From Escherichia coli (lineage in GTDB: Bacteria; Pseudomonadota; Gammaproteobacteria; Enterobacterales; Enterobacteriaceae), in assembly GCF_044647545.1 (NCBI RefSeq), contig NZ_CP172818.1: 64,000 nucleotides of DNA; one strand, written 5' to 3'. The translations under genes and the position numbers were made by a program. A model generated the notes under the pieces. The model ran no database searches. It was not told the DNA's origin and saw only the letters and a program-made list of their open reading frames with translations. This document shows, piece after piece, positions 1,472-11,189 of this stretch (position 1 is the first letter of the stretch; each line of letters starts with the position of its first letter).

Positions 1472-2191
1472 GTGAATGTCAATTTCTTTGTCACCTGTAT
1501 TGGTGACGCCCTGAAATCAAGAATGGCACGAGACTCCGTGCTGCTACTGGAAAAACTCGGCTGTCGCGTAAATTTCCCGGAGAAACAGGGATGCTGCGGT
1601 CAGCCTGCGATCAATAGTGGTTATATCAAAGAAGCGATTCCAGGGATGAAAAATCTGATCGCCGCACTGGAGGATAACGACGCTCCCATTATTTCACCGG
1701 CTGGCTCTTGCACCTATGCCGTAAAAAGTTACCCGACGTATCTGGCGGATGAACCTGAATGGGCATCACGTGCCGAAAAGGTTGCCGCGCGTATGCAGGA
1801 TCTCACCTCTTTTATTGTTAATACATTAGGGGTAGTCGATGTAGGTGCCAGTTTGCAAGGGAGAGCGGTGTATCACCCATCTTGTAGCCTGGCCCGTAAG
1901 CTGGGGGTGAAGGACGAACCACTTACGCTGCTGAAAAATGTGCGTGGACTGGAGCTGTTGACCTTTGCTGAACAGGATACCTGCTGCGGATTTGGCGGCA
2001 CGTTCTCGGTCAAAATGGCCGAAATATCCGGCGAGATGGTGAAAGAAAAGGTTGTGCACCTGATGGAAGTCCGCCCTGAGTATTTAATTGGTGCTGACGT
2101 GAGTTGCCTGCTGAACATCAGTGGACGATTACAACGGGAAGGGCAGAAAGTCAAAGTGATGCATATTGCTGAAGTGCTGATGAGTCGCTGA
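1472..2191 (+). CDS. ykgE: LutA-like Fe-S oxidoreductase subunit (cysteine-rich CCG domains), GTG start
   Basis: ORF track 1472..2191, 239 aa; repeated CCG motifs; GGAG 8-11 nt upstream; forms ykgEFG operon. Confidence 0.85.
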   Translation: MNVNFFVTCIGDALKSRMARDSVLLLEKLGCRVNFPEKQGCCGQPAINSGYIKEAIPGMKNLIAALEDNDAPIISPAGSCTYAVKSYPTYLADEPEWASRAEKVAARMQDLTSFIVNTLGVVDVGASLQGRAVYHPSCSLARKLGVKDEPLTLLKNVRGLELLTFAEQDTCCGFGGTFSVKMAEISGEMVKEKVVHLMEVRPEYLIGADVSCLLNISGRLQREGQKVKVMHIAEVLMSR

Positions 2192-2201
2192 GGATATAAA
2201 G

Positions 2202-3629
2202 ATGTCGATCAAAACCAGTAATACAGATTTTAAGACACGCATCCGTCAGCAAATTGAAGATCCGATCATGCGCAAAGCGGTGGCAAACGCGCAGCAGCGT
2301 ATCGGGGCAAATCGGCAAAAAATGGTCGATGAATTGGGGCACTGGGAGGAATGGCGCGATCGGGCCGCCCAGATACGTGATCATGTTCTGAGTAATCTCG
2401 ACGCTTATCTGTACCAGCTCTCAGAAAAAGTGACGCAAAACGGCGGTCACGTCTATTTTGCAAAAACCAAAGAAGACGCTACCCGCTACATTTTACAGGT
2501 TGCCCAACGCAAAAATGCCCGGAAGGTGGTGAAATCTAAATCGATGGTGACCGAAGAGATTGGTGTCAATCATGTGTTGCAGGATGCTGGCATTCAGGTG
2601 ATTGAAACCGATCTGGGTGAATACATTCTCCAGCTGGATCAAGATCCGCCCTCTCATGTTGTGGTCCCGGCAATTCATAAAGATCGCCATCAGATCCGTC
2701 GAGTGCTACACGAACGTCTGGGCTATGAGGGGCCGGAAACGCCTGAAGCGATGACCTTATTCATTCGGCAAAAAATCCGCGAAGATTTCCTCAGTGCTGA
2801 AATAGGTATTACCGGCTGTAATTTCGCGGTGGCAGAGACCGGTTCGGTATGCCTGGTGACCAATGAAGGTAATGCGCGAATGTGTACCACGCTGCCTAAA
2901 ACGCATATTGCAGTGATGGGAATGGAGCGTATTGCCCCCACGTTTGCCGAGGTAGATGTATTGATCACCATGCTGGCGCGCAGTGCCGTTGGTGCACGTT
3001 TGACGGGATACAACACCTGGCTGACAGGACCGCGCGAAGCGGGGCACGTTGATGGTCCTGAAGAGTTTCATCTGGTTATTGTCGATAACGGGCGTTCTGA
3101 GGTGCTGGCCTCTGAATTTCGGGATGTGCTGCGCTGTATTCGCTGCGGGGCTTGTATGAATACTTGTCCGGCATATCGCCATATTGGCGGTCATGGATAT
3201 GGCTCTATTTATCCAGGGCCAATTGGTGCGGTGATTTCTCCGCTACTTGGCGGCTATAAAGATTTTAAAGATTTACCCTACGCCTGCTCTTTATGCACTG
3301 CTTGTGACAACGTGTGTCCGGTGCGTATTCCGCTGTCAAAACTGATTTTGCGTCATCGTCGGGTGATGGCTGAAAAAGGGATCACCGCAAAAGCAGAGCA
3401 ACGGGCGATAAAAATGTTCGCTTATGCCAATAGTCATCCAGGATTGTGGAAAGTCGGGATGATGGCCGGCGCTCATGCGGCAAGCTGGTTTATCAATGGC
3501 GGCAAAACACCACTCAAATTTGGCGCGATTAGCGACTGGATGGAAGCACGCGATCTTCCTGAAGCTGACGGAGAGAGTTTCCGTAGTTGGTTTAAGAAAC
3601 ATCAGGCGCAGGAGAAAAAGAATGGATAA
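2202..3629 (+). CDS. ykgF: LutB-like iron-sulfur protein (4Fe-4S ferredoxin-type, CxxCxxCxxxCP motifs)
   Basis: ORF track 2202..3629, 475 aa; two CxxCxxC clusters visible in translation. Confidence 0.85.
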   Translation: MSIKTSNTDFKTRIRQQIEDPIMRKAVANAQQRIGANRQKMVDELGHWEEWRDRAAQIRDHVLSNLDAYLYQLSEKVTQNGGHVYFAKTKEDATRYILQVAQRKNARKVVKSKSMVTEEIGVNHVLQDAGIQVIETDLGEYILQLDQDPPSHVVVPAIHKDRHQIRRVLHERLGYEGPETPEAMTLFIRQKIREDFLSAEIGITGCNFAVAETGSVCLVTNEGNARMCTTLPKTHIAVMGMERIAPTFAEVDVLITMLARSAVGARLTGYNTWLTGPREAGHVDGPEEFHLVIVDNGRSEVLASEFRDVLRCIRCGACMNTCPAYRHIGGHGYGSIYPGPIGAVISPLLGGYKDFKDLPYACSLCTACDNVCPVRIPLSKLILRHRRVMAEKGITAKAEQRAIKMFAYANSHPGLWKVGMMAGAHAASWFINGGKTPLKFGAISDWMEARDLPEADGESFRSWFKKHQAQEKKNG

Positions 3630-4317
3630 TCGGAGCGAATTTTTGAATAACGTTGCTCAGGCACTGGGTCGCCCGCAGCGACTTGAACCGCAAGCAGAAG
3701 ATGCGCCGCTAAACAACTATGCTAACGAGCGGCTTACCGAACTTAACCAACAGCAGCGCTGTGACGCGTTTATCCAGTTTGCCAGCGATGTTATGTTGAC
3801 GCGCTGTGAACTGACCAGCGAGGCGCAGGCCGCAGAAGCTGCAATACGTCTGTGTAAAGAGCTGGGAGATCAGTCGATCGTGATTAGCGGTGACACGAGG
3901 CTGGAGGAATTGGGGATTAGCGAACGTTTGCAGCAGGAATGCAATGTCGTTGTTTGGGATCCGGCGAAAGGTATTGAGAACATATCACAAGCAGAGCAGG
4001 CTAAAGTTGGCGTAGTGTATGCTGAATATGGTTTAACCGAATCGGGAGGCGTGGTTCTTTTTTCCGCCGCCGGGCGCGGGCGTTCATTGAGCCTGCTCCC
4101 GGAATCTTCTCTTTTTATCCTGCGTAAAAGCACTATCCTGCCGCGTGTAGCGCAACTCGCAGAAAAATTGCATCAGAAAGCGCAGGCCGGTGAACGAATG
4201 CCTTCCTGCATTAACATCATTAGCGGCCCCAGTTCAACGGCGGATATTGAGCTTATCAAAGTCGTCGGAGTTCATGGCCCGGTGAAAGCGGTGTATCTGA
4301 TTATTGAGGATTGTTGA
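3622..4317 (+). CDS. ykgG: LutC-like subunit, 231 aa from internal ATG overlapping ykgF stop by 8 bp
   Basis: ORF track 3475..4317; ATG at 3622 preceded by GGAG; operon context. Confidence 0.75.
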   Translation: MDNRSEFLNNVAQALGRPQRLEPQAEDAPLNNYANERLTELNQQQRCDAFIQFASDVMLTRCELTSEAQAAEAAIRLCKELGDQSIVISGDTRLEELGISERLQQECNVVVWDPAKGIENISQAEQAKVGVVYAEYGLTESGGVVLFSAAGRGRSLSLLPESSLFILRKSTILPRVAQLAEKLHQKAQAGERMPSCINIISGPSSTADIELIKVVGVHGPVKAVYLIIEDC

Positions 4318-4427
4318 GAGAGATATGAAGTCTGGACATAAACCTGAAGAAGGCATACGAGGTTGAAAATAGCGTTTAGGACAACCTGACTTAACCCCGT
4401 TCCGTCATGGTTATGCTGCTCTTCTGT

Positions 4428-4460
4428 AAATATCCTGGCATTACTAATGCCAGGATATTT
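4428..4460. other. Perfect 33-bp palindrome (15-bp arms, 3-bp loop) between convergent ykgG and ykgH
   Basis: AAATATCCTGGCATT-ACT-AATGCCAGGATATTT read directly; no U-rich tail on either strand. Confidence 0.6.
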
Positions 4461-4559
4461 AAAGTGAAAAAGACAGGCATCCATTCCTGAAAACGGGTTC
4501 CCTTCCCGGTCATTGTCACTTCAGCTTTATACAGGCACTCTCTATCAGAATGCTGTTTA

Positions 4560-5058
4560 TTACTGCCCAGAGTTTTGTTGGTATTCATCTACCATTTTTT
4601 TGACAAGGCAAAACATTACAGAAATCACAATGCTTAGAAAAAATCCCAGAATCAGGCAAATGGCAGCAGGATATTTACTTTTTATTTCCGGTGAGCTTAT
4701 GGTTACACAGTCATCACCGTTCGGATACAATGACCAGTTCCTGGTCAGGTATATCATTTTTGTATAAAGCTCACTGTTAATTGCTGAAGGTGTTTGTATC
4801 TCATCGAGAACTTGCCTGCCGTTATGGTATTCTGACGCATACCATTTGATAATAGACGCATGCACGCGAGATATTTCCGCTTCAGCAGTTGGTAAATCTC
4901 TCTTATCTCCTGACCATTCCAGCTTTATTTCTCGTATACAGAAACAACAGCACCATTGCCATACAGATAGCTATAATAAAAAGGATAATACGAATCTTTT
5001 TCTTCAGATAAAATAAAATCTCAATCAGATCGATATCCTGTTTGATTTGTTCACTCAT
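4560..5058 (-). pseudogene. ykgH: ykgH-like inner membrane protein, reading frame broken by a 1-bp shift near 4930-4945
   Basis: ATG at 5058 opens a 53-codon frame that stops at about 4900; C-terminal 101 aa are in another frame (track ORF 4560..4865); the two parts overlap around an A-run. Confidence 0.5.
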
Positions 5059-5251
5059 AATATATCCAGAAAATAAAATCTGCCGCAGATAAATGAATTA
5101 ATAGTCTGTATCAGGAATGTTCGGGTTAAATATCAGCAAAAAGCCAGCATCATGAATACTGGATATGAAGCATGAGAGTTACCTCAGTGTTTTATATAAG
5201 GATTCGGTCCTCATAGTAGAACGGTAACTCTCAATCTGATAGGTTCCTGAG

Positions 5252-6940
5252 TCAGTTCACATCACGACTCATTTTTTTCGCTCTCACCGGCATCCCATTT
5301 GCCACATAATATCCCGCCGTGCTCCTCGGCAACGCATCCTTCCCGCGAATCATATCCGCTATTTTCTCGCCAATCATAATGGTCGTGGCGTTCAAATTGC
5401 CGGTGATAATTTGCGGCATAATTGACGCATCCACCACGCGCAGGCCTTCCAGCCCGTGTACGCGGCCTTCGCCGTCAACCACTGCCATCTCGTCATAACC
5501 CATTTTGCAGGTACCGCACGGGTGGAAGGCGGTTTCGGCGTGGTTACGCACGAACTCATCGAGCTGCTCATCCGTCTGGCATTCGACACCGGGGCTGATT
5601 TCGCGGCCACGATACTGATCCAGCGCCGGTTGATGCATGATCTCCCGGGTGATGCGAATTGCGTCGCGGAACTCCTGCCAGTCCTGCTCGTGCGACATGT
5701 AGTTAAACAGAATCGCTGGATGCTGGTGCGGGGCGCGGGATTTAATCCGCACATGCCCACGGCTTGGCGAGCGCATCGATCCGACGTGGCACTGGAAGCC
5801 GTGCTCTTTCACTGCGTTCGAGCCGTTATAGTTAATCGCTACTGGCAGGAAATGGTACTGAATATTCGGCCACGCAAATTCCTCACGGCTGCGAATAAAT
5901 CCGCCTGCTTCAAAGTGGTTGCTGGCACCAATGCCGGTGCCGCCAAACAGCCACTCCGCACCGATTTTCGGCTGATTCCACCACTGCAGGGCAGGGTAGA
6001 GGGAAACCGGTTCTTTGCACTCATATTGCAGATACATCTCCAGGTGATCCTGAAGATTTTCGCCGACGCCAGGTAATTCATGCACCAGCGGAATATCAAA
6101 CTCCGCCAGCAGTTCAGCGTTGCCGACGCCGGAGCGTTGCAGGATCTGCGGTGAAGCAATCGCGCCTGCACATAACAGCACTTCTTTATTCGCCGCCGCG
6201 CGGGTCGGAATGGTGCTGTCGCCTTCCAGCCACTCGACGCCCACCGCGCGTTTGCCGTCAAAAATGATGTGATCGGTCATGGCGTGAGTACGAATAGTCA
6301 GGTTAGGGCGCGATTTGGCCTGATCGAGATAGCCACGCGCGGTGCTGGCGCGACGGCCATGCGGCGTGACGGTGCGATCCATCGGGCCAAAACCTTCTTG
6401 CTGATAGCCGTTGAGATCGTCCGTGCGCGGGTAGCCCGCCTGCACGCCCGCTTCAATCATCGCTTCAAACAGCGGATTGACGCCGGGTTTGGAGGTGGTG
6501 ACGCTCACCGGGCCATCACCGCCGTGGTAGTCGTTCTCGCCCACATCGCGAGTCTCGGCCTTGCGGTAGTAGGGCAGGCAGTCGAGATAACTCCAGTTCT
6601 CCAGACCAGGTTCTTGTGCCCAGTTATCGAGATCCAGCGCATTGCCACGGATGTAGCACATACCATTGATCAGCGATGAACCGCCCAGACCTTTGCCGCG
6701 TCCGCACTCCATGCGGCGGTTGTTCATAAACGGTTCGGGTTCCGTCTCATAGGCCCAGTTGTAGCGTTTGCCCTGTAACGGGAACGCCAGCGCGGCGGGC
6801 ATCTGGGTGCGGAAGTCAAAGCGATAGTCCGGGCCGCCTGCTTCAAGCAGCAGCACGGTTATGTTCGGATCTTCAGTCAGACGGGTAGCGAGGACGTTGC
6901 CGGCTGAGCCGGCACCAATAATGATGTAGTCAAATTGCAA
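5252..6940 (-). CDS. betA: Choline dehydrogenase (GMC oxidoreductase), TTG start 5 nt after AGGAGG
   Basis: ORF track 5252..6985; N-terminal FAD motif [11 protein letters not shown]; TTG at 6940 with strong SD. Confidence 0.9.
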
Positions 6941-6953
6941 ATAAACCTCCTGG

Positions 6954-8426
6954 TTAGAATATGGACTGGAATTTAGCCATCTCAACCTGGATGGACTTCA
7001 CCTGGGTGTAACTCTGGAGCGTCATCACGCCGTTCTCGCGACCAATGCCGGAGTGTTTGTAGCCGCCAACGGGCATCTCTGCCGGGGATTCGCCCCAGGT
7101 GTTGATCCAGCAAATACCCGCTTCCAGCTGATGAATGACGCGATGCGCGCGGTTCAGGTCCGCCGTCACGATACCCGCCGCCAGACCGTAGTCGGTATCG
7201 TTAGCGCGGCGAATGACTTCGTCTTCCGACTCGTAGGTCAGAATGGACATCACCGGCCCGAAAATCTCTTCGCGCACGATGGTCATTTCGTCGCGGCAAT
7301 CGGTGAACACGGTCGGTGCAACCCATGCGCCGTTATCGAAGCCATCGCCTTTCAGTACATCGCCGCCGCACAGTACGCGCGCGCCTTCCTCTTTGCCTTT
7401 GGCGATATAGCGCAGCACGTTATCGCGATGCGGGAAGCTGACCAGCGGGCCGAAGTTAGTTTGCGGATCGAAAACGTCGCCCGCGCGAATGCGCTCAACG
7501 CGCGCCAGAATCTTTTGTTCAAATGCGGCTTTGCATTTCGTCGGAACGAAGACGCGAGTGCCGTTGGTACACACCTGACCGGAGCTGAAGAAATTCGCCA
7601 TCATGGCGATATCGGCGGCGAGATCGAGATCCGCATCGTCAAAAACGATCAGCGGTGATTTACCGCCCAGCTCCATGGTCACTTCTTTCAGGGAAGAGGC
7701 CGCCGAGTTAGCCATCACTTTTTTGCCGCTGGCGACACCGCCGGTAAATGACACTTTGGCAATGCCCGGATGCTCGGTCAGATACTGCCCGGTTTCCGCA
7801 CCTACGCCCGGCAGCACGTTAAATACGCCGTCCGGCAGGCCCGCTTCGCTGTAAATGTCGGCCAGCTTTAACGCGGTAAGCGGGGTGACTTCGCTCGGTT
7901 TGAAAATCATCGCGTTGCCTGCCGCCAGCGCCGGTGCGGATTTCCACAAGGCAATCTGGATCGGGTAGTTCCATGCGCCAATCCCTGCCACTACGCCCAG
8001 CGGTTCGCGGCGGGTATAAACAAATGACGTCTCACGCAATGGGATCTGGCTGCCTTCCAGCGCCGGGATCAGCCCGGCGTAGTACTCCAGCACGTCCGCA
8101 CCGGTAACGATATCGACGGTTGATGTTTCCGAATACGCTTTTCCGGTGTCGAGGGTTTCCAGTTTTGCGAGTTCGTCATTGCGTTCACGCAGAATATCAA
8201 CGGCCCGACGCAGAATACGCGAGCGTTCCATAGCGGTCATCGCCGCCCAGATTTTTTGCCCCTGTTGGGCACTCTTCACGGCGCGATCGACATCCTCACG
8301 CCCGGCGGCCTGCACGGTCGCCAGCACGTTACCGTTGGCCGGGTTAATGGTCTCGAAGGTGCGACCGCTGGTGGCGGAGGTATAACCACCATGTATATAA
8401 AGCTGCTGTTCTGCCATTCGGGACAT
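6954..8426 (-). CDS. betB: Betaine aldehyde dehydrogenase
   Basis: ORF track 6954..8429, aldehyde dehydrogenase family sequence, 490 aa from second Met. Confidence 0.9.
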
Positions 8427-8439
8427 CACGTCTCCTCGG

Positions 8440-9027
8440 TTAATCGGTGGGTAAATGCTGAGTAATAAAGTGACGGGTCAGCGAGTGTGCGAGAGGTTTA
8501 TCCAGCGGTTTGCCGCTCAGTGCCGCGCGCAGCCATAATCCGTCAATCAGCGCGGCAAGGCCGTAGCCCGCTTCCTGTGCCTGGTGGCGCGGTAACTCGC
8601 GGTGAAATTCGCTCACCAGATTCGACAACAAGCGGCGGCTGCTCACCTGCTGCAAACGGTAAAGCATCGGCTGATGCATACTGCTGGCCCAAAACGCCAA
8701 CCAGGCTTTCATCGCAGCATTACTGACCTGCGTTTCATCGAAATTCCCGTCAACAATCGCCTGTAATCGCTGCTCTGGGCTACCATCCGTTAGCGCGTGT
8801 AATCGATTCAAAACCGCGTCACGCAGCTGACTGGTGATATCGCGCATGGTTGCTTCCAGCAGACCATTTTTGTCCCTGAAATAGTGGCTGATGATCCCCG
8901 TAGAAACGCCTGCACGGCGGGCGATCTGCGCGATCGTTGCATCGTGCATGCCCACTTCATTTATTGCTTCCAGCGTGGCGTCGATCAGTTGTCTGCGCCG
9001 GATCGACTGCATCCCCAATTTGGGCAT
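8440..9027 (-). CDS. betI: TetR-family repressor of the bet regulon
   Basis: ORF track 8440..9045; ATG at 9027 gives 195 aa; N-terminal HTH. Confidence 0.9.
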
Positions 9028-9071
9028 TTTCGCCACTCCATTCATCAGCGTTGTTTATCTATTAAAGCGGT

Positions 9072-9155: not shown

Positions 9156-11189
9156 ATGACAGACCTTTCACACAGCAGGGAAAAGGACAAAATCAATCCG
9201 GTGGTGTTTTACACTTCCGCCGGACTGATTTTGTTGTTTTCCCTGACAACGATCCTGTTTCGCGACTTCTCGGCCCTGTGGATTGGCCGCACGCTGGACT
9301 GGGTCTCTAAAACCTTCGGTTGGTACTATCTGCTGGCGGCAACGCTCTATATTGTCTTTGTGGTCTGTATCGCTTGTTCGCGTTTTGGTTCGGTGAAGCT
9401 CGGGCCAGAACAATCAAAACCGGAATTCAGTCTGCTGAGTTGGGCGGCGATGCTGTTTGCTGCCGGGATCGGTATCGACCTGATGTTCTTCTCCGTAGCC
9501 GAACCGGTCACGCAGTATATGCAGCCGCCGGAAGGCGCGGGTCAGACGATTGAGGCCGCGCGTCAGGCGATGGTCTGGACGCTGTTTCACTACGGCTTAA
9601 CCGGCTGGTCGATGTATGCGCTGATGGGCATGGCGCTCGGATACTTTAGCTATCGTTATAATTTGCCGCTCACCATCCGCTCAGCGCTGTACCCGATCTT
9701 CGGTAAACGGATTAACGGGCCGATAGGTCACTCAGTGGATATTGCAGCGGTGATCGGCACCATCTTCGGTATTGCCACTACGCTCGGTATTGGTGTGGTG
9801 CAGCTTAACTATGGCTTGAGCGTACTGTTTGATATTCCCGATTCAATGGCGGCGAAAGCGGCACTGATCGCCTTGTCGGTGATCATCGCAACGATCTCTG
9901 TCACCTCCGGTGTCGATAAGGGCATTCGCGTGTTATCGGAACTTAACGTTGCGCTGGCGCTGGGGTTGATCCTGTTTGTGCTGTTTATGGGCGACACCTC
10001 GTTCCTGCTTAATGCGCTGGTGCTGAACGTTGGCGACTATGTGAATCGCTTTATGGGCATGACGCTCAACAGTTTTGCCTTCGACCGTCCGGTTGAGTGG
10101 ATGAATAACTGGACGCTCTTCTTCTGGGCATGGTGGGTGGCATGGTCGCCGTTTGTCGGCTTGTTCCTGGCGCGTATCTCGCGTGGGCGTACCATTCGCC
10201 AGTTCGTGCTGGGCACGTTGATTATTCCGTTTACCTTCACGCTGTTATGGCTCTCGGTATTCGGCAATAGCGCGCTGTATGAAATCATCCACGGCGGCGC
10301 GGCATTTGCCGAGGAAGCGATGGTCCATCCGGAGCGCGGCTTCTACAGCCTGCTGGCGCAGTATCCGGCGTTTACCTTTAGCGCCTCCGTCGCCACCATT
10401 ACTGGCCTGCTGTTTTATGTGACCTCGGCGGACTCCGGGGCGCTGGTGCTGGGGAATTTCACCTCGCAGCTTAAAGATATCAACAGCGACGCCCCCGGCT
10501 GGCTGCGCGTCTTCTGGTCGGTGGCGATTGGCCTGCTGACGCTAGGCATGCTGATGACCAACGGGATATCCGCGCTGCAAAACACCACGGTGATTATGGG
10601 CCTGCCGTTCAGCTTTGTGATCTTCTTCGTGATGGCGGGGTTGTATAAATCTCTGAAGGTAGAAGATTACCGCCGTGAAAGTGCCAACCGCGATACCGCG
10701 CCGCGACCGCTGGGGCTTCAGGATCGCCTGAGCTGGAAAAAACGTCTCTCGCGCCTGATGAATTATCCGGGCACGCGTTACACTAAACAGATGATGGAGA
10801 CGGTCTGTTATCCGGCAATGGAAGAAGTGGCGCAGGAACTGCGGTTGCGCGGCGCGTACGTGGAGCTAAAAAACCTGCCGCCGGAAGAGGGACAACAGTT
10901 GGGGCATCTGGATTTGTTGGTGCATATGGGCGAAGAGCAAAACTTTGTCTATCAGATTTGGCCGCAGCAATATTCGGTGCCGGGCTTTACCTACCGCGCA
11001 CGTAGCGGGAAATCGACCTACTACCGGCTGGAAACCTTCCTGTTAGAAGGCAGCCAGGGCAACGACCTGATGGACTACAGCAAAGAGCAGGTGATCACCG
11101 ATATTCTTGACCAGTACGAGCGGCATCTTAACTTTATCCATCTCCATCGTGAAGCGCCGGGCCATAGCGTGATGTTCCCGGACGCGTGA
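9156..11189 (+). CDS. betT: Choline transporter (BCCT family)
   Basis: ORF track 9156..11189, 677 aa, multi-TM BCCT-like sequence. Confidence 0.9.
   Translation: MTDLSHSREKDKINPVVFYTSAGLILLFSLTTILFRDFSALWIGRTLDWVSKTFGWYYLLAATLYIVFVVCIACSRFGSVKLGPEQSKPEFSLLSWAAMLFAAGIGIDLMFFSVAEPVTQYMQPPEGAGQTIEAARQAMVWTLFHYGLTGWSMYALMGMALGYFSYRYNLPLTIRSALYPIFGKRINGPIGHSVDIAAVIGTIFGIATTLGIGVVQLNYGLSVLFDIPDSMAAKAALIALSVIIATISVTSGVDKGIRVLSELNVALALGLILFVLFMGDTSFLLNALVLNVGDYVNRFMGMTLNSFAFDRPVEWMNNWTLFFWAWWVAWSPFVGLFLARISRGRTIRQFVLGTLIIPFTFTLLWLSVFGNSALYEIIHGGAAFAEEAMVHPERGFYSLLAQYPAFTFSASVATITGLLFYVTSADSGALVLGNFTSQLKDINSDAPGWLRVFWSVAIGLLTLGMLMTNGISALQNTTVIMGLPFSFVIFFVMAGLYKSLKVEDYRRESANRDTAPRPLGLQDRLSWKKRLSRLMNYPGTRYTKQMMETVCYPAMEEVAQELRLRGAYVELKNLPPEEGQQLGHLDLLVHMGEEQNFVYQIWPQQYSVPGFTYRARSGKSTYYRLETFLLEGSQGNDLMDYSKEQVITDILDQYERHLNFIHLHREAPGHSVMFPDA

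Follow-up and report, generated by a model that had tools for sequence, protein, structure and literature searches.

A 562-residue BetA allele of Escherichia coli that differs from the K-12 form by one base in a homopolymer near the stop codon

The bet genes of Escherichia coli were characterized in the late 1980s to early 1990s, and the oxidation of choline to betaine-aldehyde is established for the K-12 choline dehydrogenase, BetA, whose 556 amino acid protein is the experimentally characterized form. The betA gene described here lies in a 64,000-nucleotide stretch of E. coli DNA (the window; NZ_CP172818.1). It shares its operon position, its TTG start and its catalytic core with K-12 betA (WP_001159094.1), and the two proteins are 98% identical. 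The difference considered here is at the carboxyl end: the K-12 gene has a run of six A (A6) and stops after the residues AKK, while the gene in the window has a run of seven A (A7) and adds the six residues MSRDVN.

The gene is identified by its sequence as betA, encoding a choline dehydrogenase of the GMC oxidoreductase type. It scored 1022.9 bits against the NCBIfam equivalog profile TIGR01810, for which the cut-off is 732.1, with the profile matched end to end over residues 4–537. Its 562-codon coordinates agree with the RefSeq annotation of strain FDAARGOS_497, and the TTG start is also present in K-12-type genomes. The neighboring genes are those expected of a bet cluster, betT and betI-betB-betA, in the expected order and orientation and all above the curated cut-offs (Table 1). 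The betB name is also found in the annotation of strains PD007 and FDAARGOS_497, and the true start of betI is probably a few codons inside the listed ORF.

Table 1. Features of the betA region, in window coordinates.
Feature	Coordinates	Strand	Remarks
betA, choline dehydrogenase	5252..6940	-	562 codons plus stop; TTG start, TGA stop
betA start codon, TTG	6940-6938	-	seven bases past AGGAGG
A7 homopolymer	5272..5278	-	seven T on the plus strand; covers two Lys codons plus the first base of the next ATG
Six codons ATG AGT CGT GAT GTG AAC (MSRDVN)	5255..5272	-	translated in the long allele only
betA stop codon of the long allele, TGA	5254-5252	-
betB, betaine-aldehyde dehydrogenase	6954..8429	-	directly upstream of betA, same operon; NF009725, 918 bits (cut-off 593)
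betI, repressor	8440..9045	-	NF001978, 307 bits (cut-off 118)
betT, choline transporter	9156..11189	+	divergent transcription; NF007399, 1315 bits (cut-off 695)
3' untranslated region of betA	5144..5233	-	long hairpin, arms GAGAGTTACC / GGTAACTCTC extended, then 8-pair hairpin
8-pair hairpin with U-run	5162-5144	-	terminator-like site
ykgH	4558-5058	-	shortened
ykgH deletion junction	4934-4935
Region variable between strains	about 3600-5250

Downstream of betA, the 8-pair hairpin and its U-run are probably the terminator of the operon, as judged from the form of the site. The fold of the 3' untranslated region had a z-score of −3.5 relative to shuffled sequences, and the hairpin arm GATTGAGAGTTACCGTTC was kept in every strain aligned. 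A scan of Rfam around the 3' end of betA matched no family.

The region 3' of betA is a variable spot between strains. In K-12, 042 and 7/2, betA is followed by ykgH and then ykgG. In O157:H7, ST131, LR-28 and SCU-316, about 1 kb is followed by an ipbA/fimX tyrosine invertase. The lineage of the window has a deleted ykgH in this position. The ykgH of FDAARGOS_497 encodes 166 amino acids and has lost an internal segment after the residues LFLY; its K-12 counterpart encodes 222. At the junction of this deletion, ACA in FDAARGOS_497 corresponds to a single C in the window, a net loss of two bases that splits the frame into ORFs of 51 and 101 amino acids. From this sequence, ykgH is a probable pseudogene in the strain of the window.

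The end of betA in the window reads, on the minus strand from 5290 to 5252, ccg gtg aga gcg aaa aaa atg agt cgt gat gtg aac tga. When PD007, a K-12-type genome of 4,641,666 bp, was aligned to the window, the sole gap was one base within the A run; this bears out the initial annotation, which had placed seven consecutive A (seven T on the plus strand) and a possible six extra C-terminal amino acids here relative to K-12. In the K-12-type sequence, GCG AAA AAA TGA, the protein ends in PVRAKK after 556 amino acids. The suggestion that one fewer A would put a TGA directly after AKK, the tentative K-12 ending of that annotation, was thus correct. The same 52-mer as in PD007 was found in MG1655, W3110 and BL21. 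K-12 has the same 18 bases as the MSRDVN codons of the window, but there they come after the stop codon. At the stop position itself the window has TGA, versus TAA in K-12, 042, LR-28 and RMDEC465. A7 thus holds the frame open for six codons more, and A6 puts a TGA directly after the two lysines.

The window's allele is a common natural one that is already in the annotation. MSRDVN had been noted as a possible extension of the protein, and any idea that it is peculiar to this sequence falls away, as the reference BetA proteins of FDAARGOS_497, 13E0767 and UID2309220003 end in the same six residues. BetA of O157:H7, 042 and SCU-316 has the tail MSRDLN. Both lengths of the protein are annotated by PGAP/RefSeq as intact, normal choline dehydrogenase.

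Using queries of 52 or 53 bases spanning the run, 5426 complete E. coli genomes were searched, and the region was present in 5182 records. Alleles were counted as exact matches (in the band of 99% or higher identity) and were split by flanking haplotype. With the flanks found in the window (GGTG..GATGTG), 510 records had A7 and 3308 had A6; with the flanks GGTG..GATTTG, 81 had A7 and 443 had A6. Two haplotypes had only one run length: all 346 records with O157:H7-type flanks (CCAGTA..GATTTG) had A7, and all 223 with the flanks GTG..TAT had A6. The long form was thus found in at least 937 of the 5182 records (18%) and the short form in at least 3974 (77%), with other flanking variants making up the remaining 271. 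Among sequenced E. coli genomes, roughly one in five carries the 562 amino acid allele. Long alleles include those of O157:H7, 042, FDAARGOS_497, 13E0767 and SCU-316; short alleles include those of K-12, BL21, O145 and ST131. These counts rule out a laboratory mutation in K-12. A separate observation concerns the locus of strain APEC E12049 (1–1805), in which an insertion of ISVsa5 (IS4 family) cuts betA; the last 714 bases of the gene are left, still with A7.

The two run lengths are not confined to separate lineages. Each run length occurs in large numbers with either base at a G/T site about 15 nucleotides downstream, and each is also found with either stop codon, TGA or TAA. In neighbor-joining trees of betA, each of the two major clades contains both run lengths. 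The run is the only difference between some near-identical alleles, for example between those of the window and ST131, or between that of 13E0767 and those of H10 and AR_0119. Fitch parsimony gave 4–5 changes among 15 alleles, from strains hand-picked to span the variants and so not a random sample. That all four gametes occur across a span of about 15 bases points to more than one slippage of a single base in the A run. The betA gene is also visibly mosaic, with trees that disagree between segments of the gene, so part of the 4–5 changes may be recombination instead of new slippage. Taken from the sequences, the changes point to recurrent one-base slippage, to recombination, or to both: A6 and A7 would be interconverted by slippage of one base in the homopolymer during replication, and recombination may also carry both alleles between lineages.

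Exchange of bet genes may extend beyond the species. The betA gene of Pseudocitrobacter vendiensis (1501–3171) differs from that of the window at only 122 of 1650 bases, a distance similar to those between E. coli alleles (up to 105). Over the first 1100 bases it clusters with that of E. coli RMDEC465 (118–1806), and its last third clusters with E. coli UID2309220003. This clustering suggests that bet genes have been exchanged between Pseudocitrobacter and Escherichia.

Overall, it is highly probable that the window carries a long, natural allele of betA, encoding 562 amino acids, that arose through slippage and/or recombination, with A6 probably the derived state and the tail probably neutral.

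The evidence on the direction of change comes from a third form of the sequence. Strains LR-28 and RMDEC465 have GCG AAA AAA CTG AAT CGC GAT TTG AAY TAA, which encodes a 562 amino acid protein ending in KKLNRDLN. This has the spacing of the long allele with C as the seventh base, so AAAAAAC cannot have come from A6 by simple slippage. In the tree, the remaining E. coli alleles group to the exclusion of RMDEC465 betA, and the root was the long state by parsimony in every sub-alignment tried. On these two lines of evidence the long frame is probably older, and the A6 allele of the K-12 type is probably a one-base deletion that truncates the 562 amino acid form. A plausible path is that AAAAAAC became AAAAAAA, changing Leu to Met, and that one A was then lost, possibly several times. 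The initial annotation had called the tail a possible extension; it is indeed six amino acids longer than the K-12 end, but the direction that the word implies is probably backwards.

The opposite direction, in which the short K-12-type allele is ancestral and A7 is a derived one-base insertion reading into formerly non-coding sequence, a true extension, is unlikely, though it is the best placed of the alternatives. It would fit with A6 being the majority allele, including that of K-12, BL21, O145 and ST131. A frame would stay open for six codons by chance with a probability of about three in four (our own arithmetic), so the open frame is no evidence of former coding. This direction does not account for the seven-base spacing that ends in C in LR-28 and RMDEC465, nor for the long state at the parsimony root. 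The long tail also has a second Arg, like the PVRxxPxR of most orthologs, although the resemblance is weak.

Because the comparison included no Escherichia outgroup species, the ancestry of the long frame is something we infer. When the 562 amino acid E. coli BetA was used to query a species-representative genome collection, no Escherichia locus was returned, and the best match was from Pseudocitrobacter, with 97% amino acid identity. A degenerate DNA pattern for the C-terminus, which K-12 should match, had no match in the same collection; Escherichia seems to be absent from it. The closest outgroup tail, PVKRSFA in Pseudocitrobacter, could not be aligned to its E. coli counterpart.

A homopolymer in a coding sequence could also be a contingency tract, through which BetA would alternate frequently between two functional forms. 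Of the three features that define phase variation, the A7 run supplies the tract itself, and both of its lengths recur across several haplotype backgrounds. The other two features are lacking. There is no on/off effect, as the conserved core is complete in both alleles and only the last six amino acids differ. Close relatives do not vary in run length, with no A6 among the 346 O157-type records and no A7 among the 223 of the GTG..TAT type; the uniformity within each of these groups indicates that the tract is not hypermutable. A run of six or seven A is also short for a contingency locus. Phase variation of BetA is therefore very improbable.

Slippage during expression, rather than in the DNA, would be another way to the long protein. 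Sites of programmed frameshifting or transcriptional slippage have either a slippery X_XXY_YYZ heptamer, read in the zero frame, or a run of about nine or more A or T. Programmed −1 frameshifting and transcriptional slippage were rejected here, as the zero frame has a G before AAA AAA (GCG AAA AAA) and so no canonical heptamer, and the A tract is just 6–7 bases long. A low-level event in A6 alleles is very improbable: with the stop codon waiting in the A site, the tRNA-Lys in the P site would slip by −1 at AAA AAA TGA, or RNA polymerase would slip, restoring the 562 amino acid form. The one hint toward it is that the 18 bases past the stop in A6 strains are intact and little changed. If it were true, A6 strains would make both isoforms, and these 18 bases would still be under selection.

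An error of sequencing or assembly in the source of the window, of the kind that is common for homopolymer lengths in some long-read assemblies, is excluded for practical purposes by the A7 counts – the exact A7 53-mer was in 510 complete-genome records and A7 with other flanks in a further 427 or more, sequenced in many laboratories and on many platforms – and run length tracked lineage perfectly in the O157-type and GTG..TAT-type groups.

The long allele of natural origin that we favor most likely makes no difference to the function of the enzyme. Its six additional residues fall outside the conserved GMC oxidoreductase core and are most likely dispensable: the equivalog profile stops at residue 537 in both the 556 and the 562 amino acid forms, the tails of orthologs are variable, and it is the 556 amino acid K-12 enzyme that has been characterized. 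An AlphaFold2 model made from a 64-sequence alignment was poor (mean pLDDT 55.9), so the low confidence of residues 545–562 in it says little about the tail. A full-text literature search found nothing on the BetA C-terminus; the betA mutation reported in PMC5460176, G9D, is unrelated to it.

The variant carries little biological weight. It cautions against taking K-12 as the ancestral state in every case, as here K-12 probably has a truncated tail. It also illustrates that a homopolymer of 6–7 bases near a stop codon can give rise to recurrent differences in protein length that annotation pipelines accept as normal. For pangenome and comparative work, it is best to group BetA proteins of 556 and 562 amino acids in a single gene family whose end is prone to slippage, and to read neither length as a sign of a frameshift error or of a pseudogene.

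Compared with the other named BetA proteins of E. coli, the protein in the window is closest to that of FDAARGOS_497 (WP_022645244.1, 562 amino acids), which is identical across the whole of betA. The proteins of O157:H7 (WP_001159114.1) and 042 (WP_001159138.1) have the same length and frame as that of the window, but end in MSRDLN and not MSRDVN, with two synonymous changes just upstream. Outside of the species, BetA orthologs of other Enterobacterales and of Pseudomonas, including one of solved structure (PDB 9lq0), have the GMC oxidoreductase fold family in common with the BetA of the window, and are conserved to about residue 553, ending in PVR. Past this point they differ from the window in both sequence and length, with endings such as R, KPAQR, AEPMRG and GKPLREVGPTAQ. 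Among 80 orthologs read, the tail was between 1 and 19 residues long. A protein search with the C-terminal 122 amino acids gave only short fragments, which showed further tails but had little taxonomic labeling. In Enterobacter and Klebsiella the end is PVRR (554 amino acids), in Citrobacter PVRKPAQR and in Pantoea PVRAEPMRG; the tails of Pseudomonas and Moraxella are longer, and that of PDB 9lq0 begins PVRGKSL.
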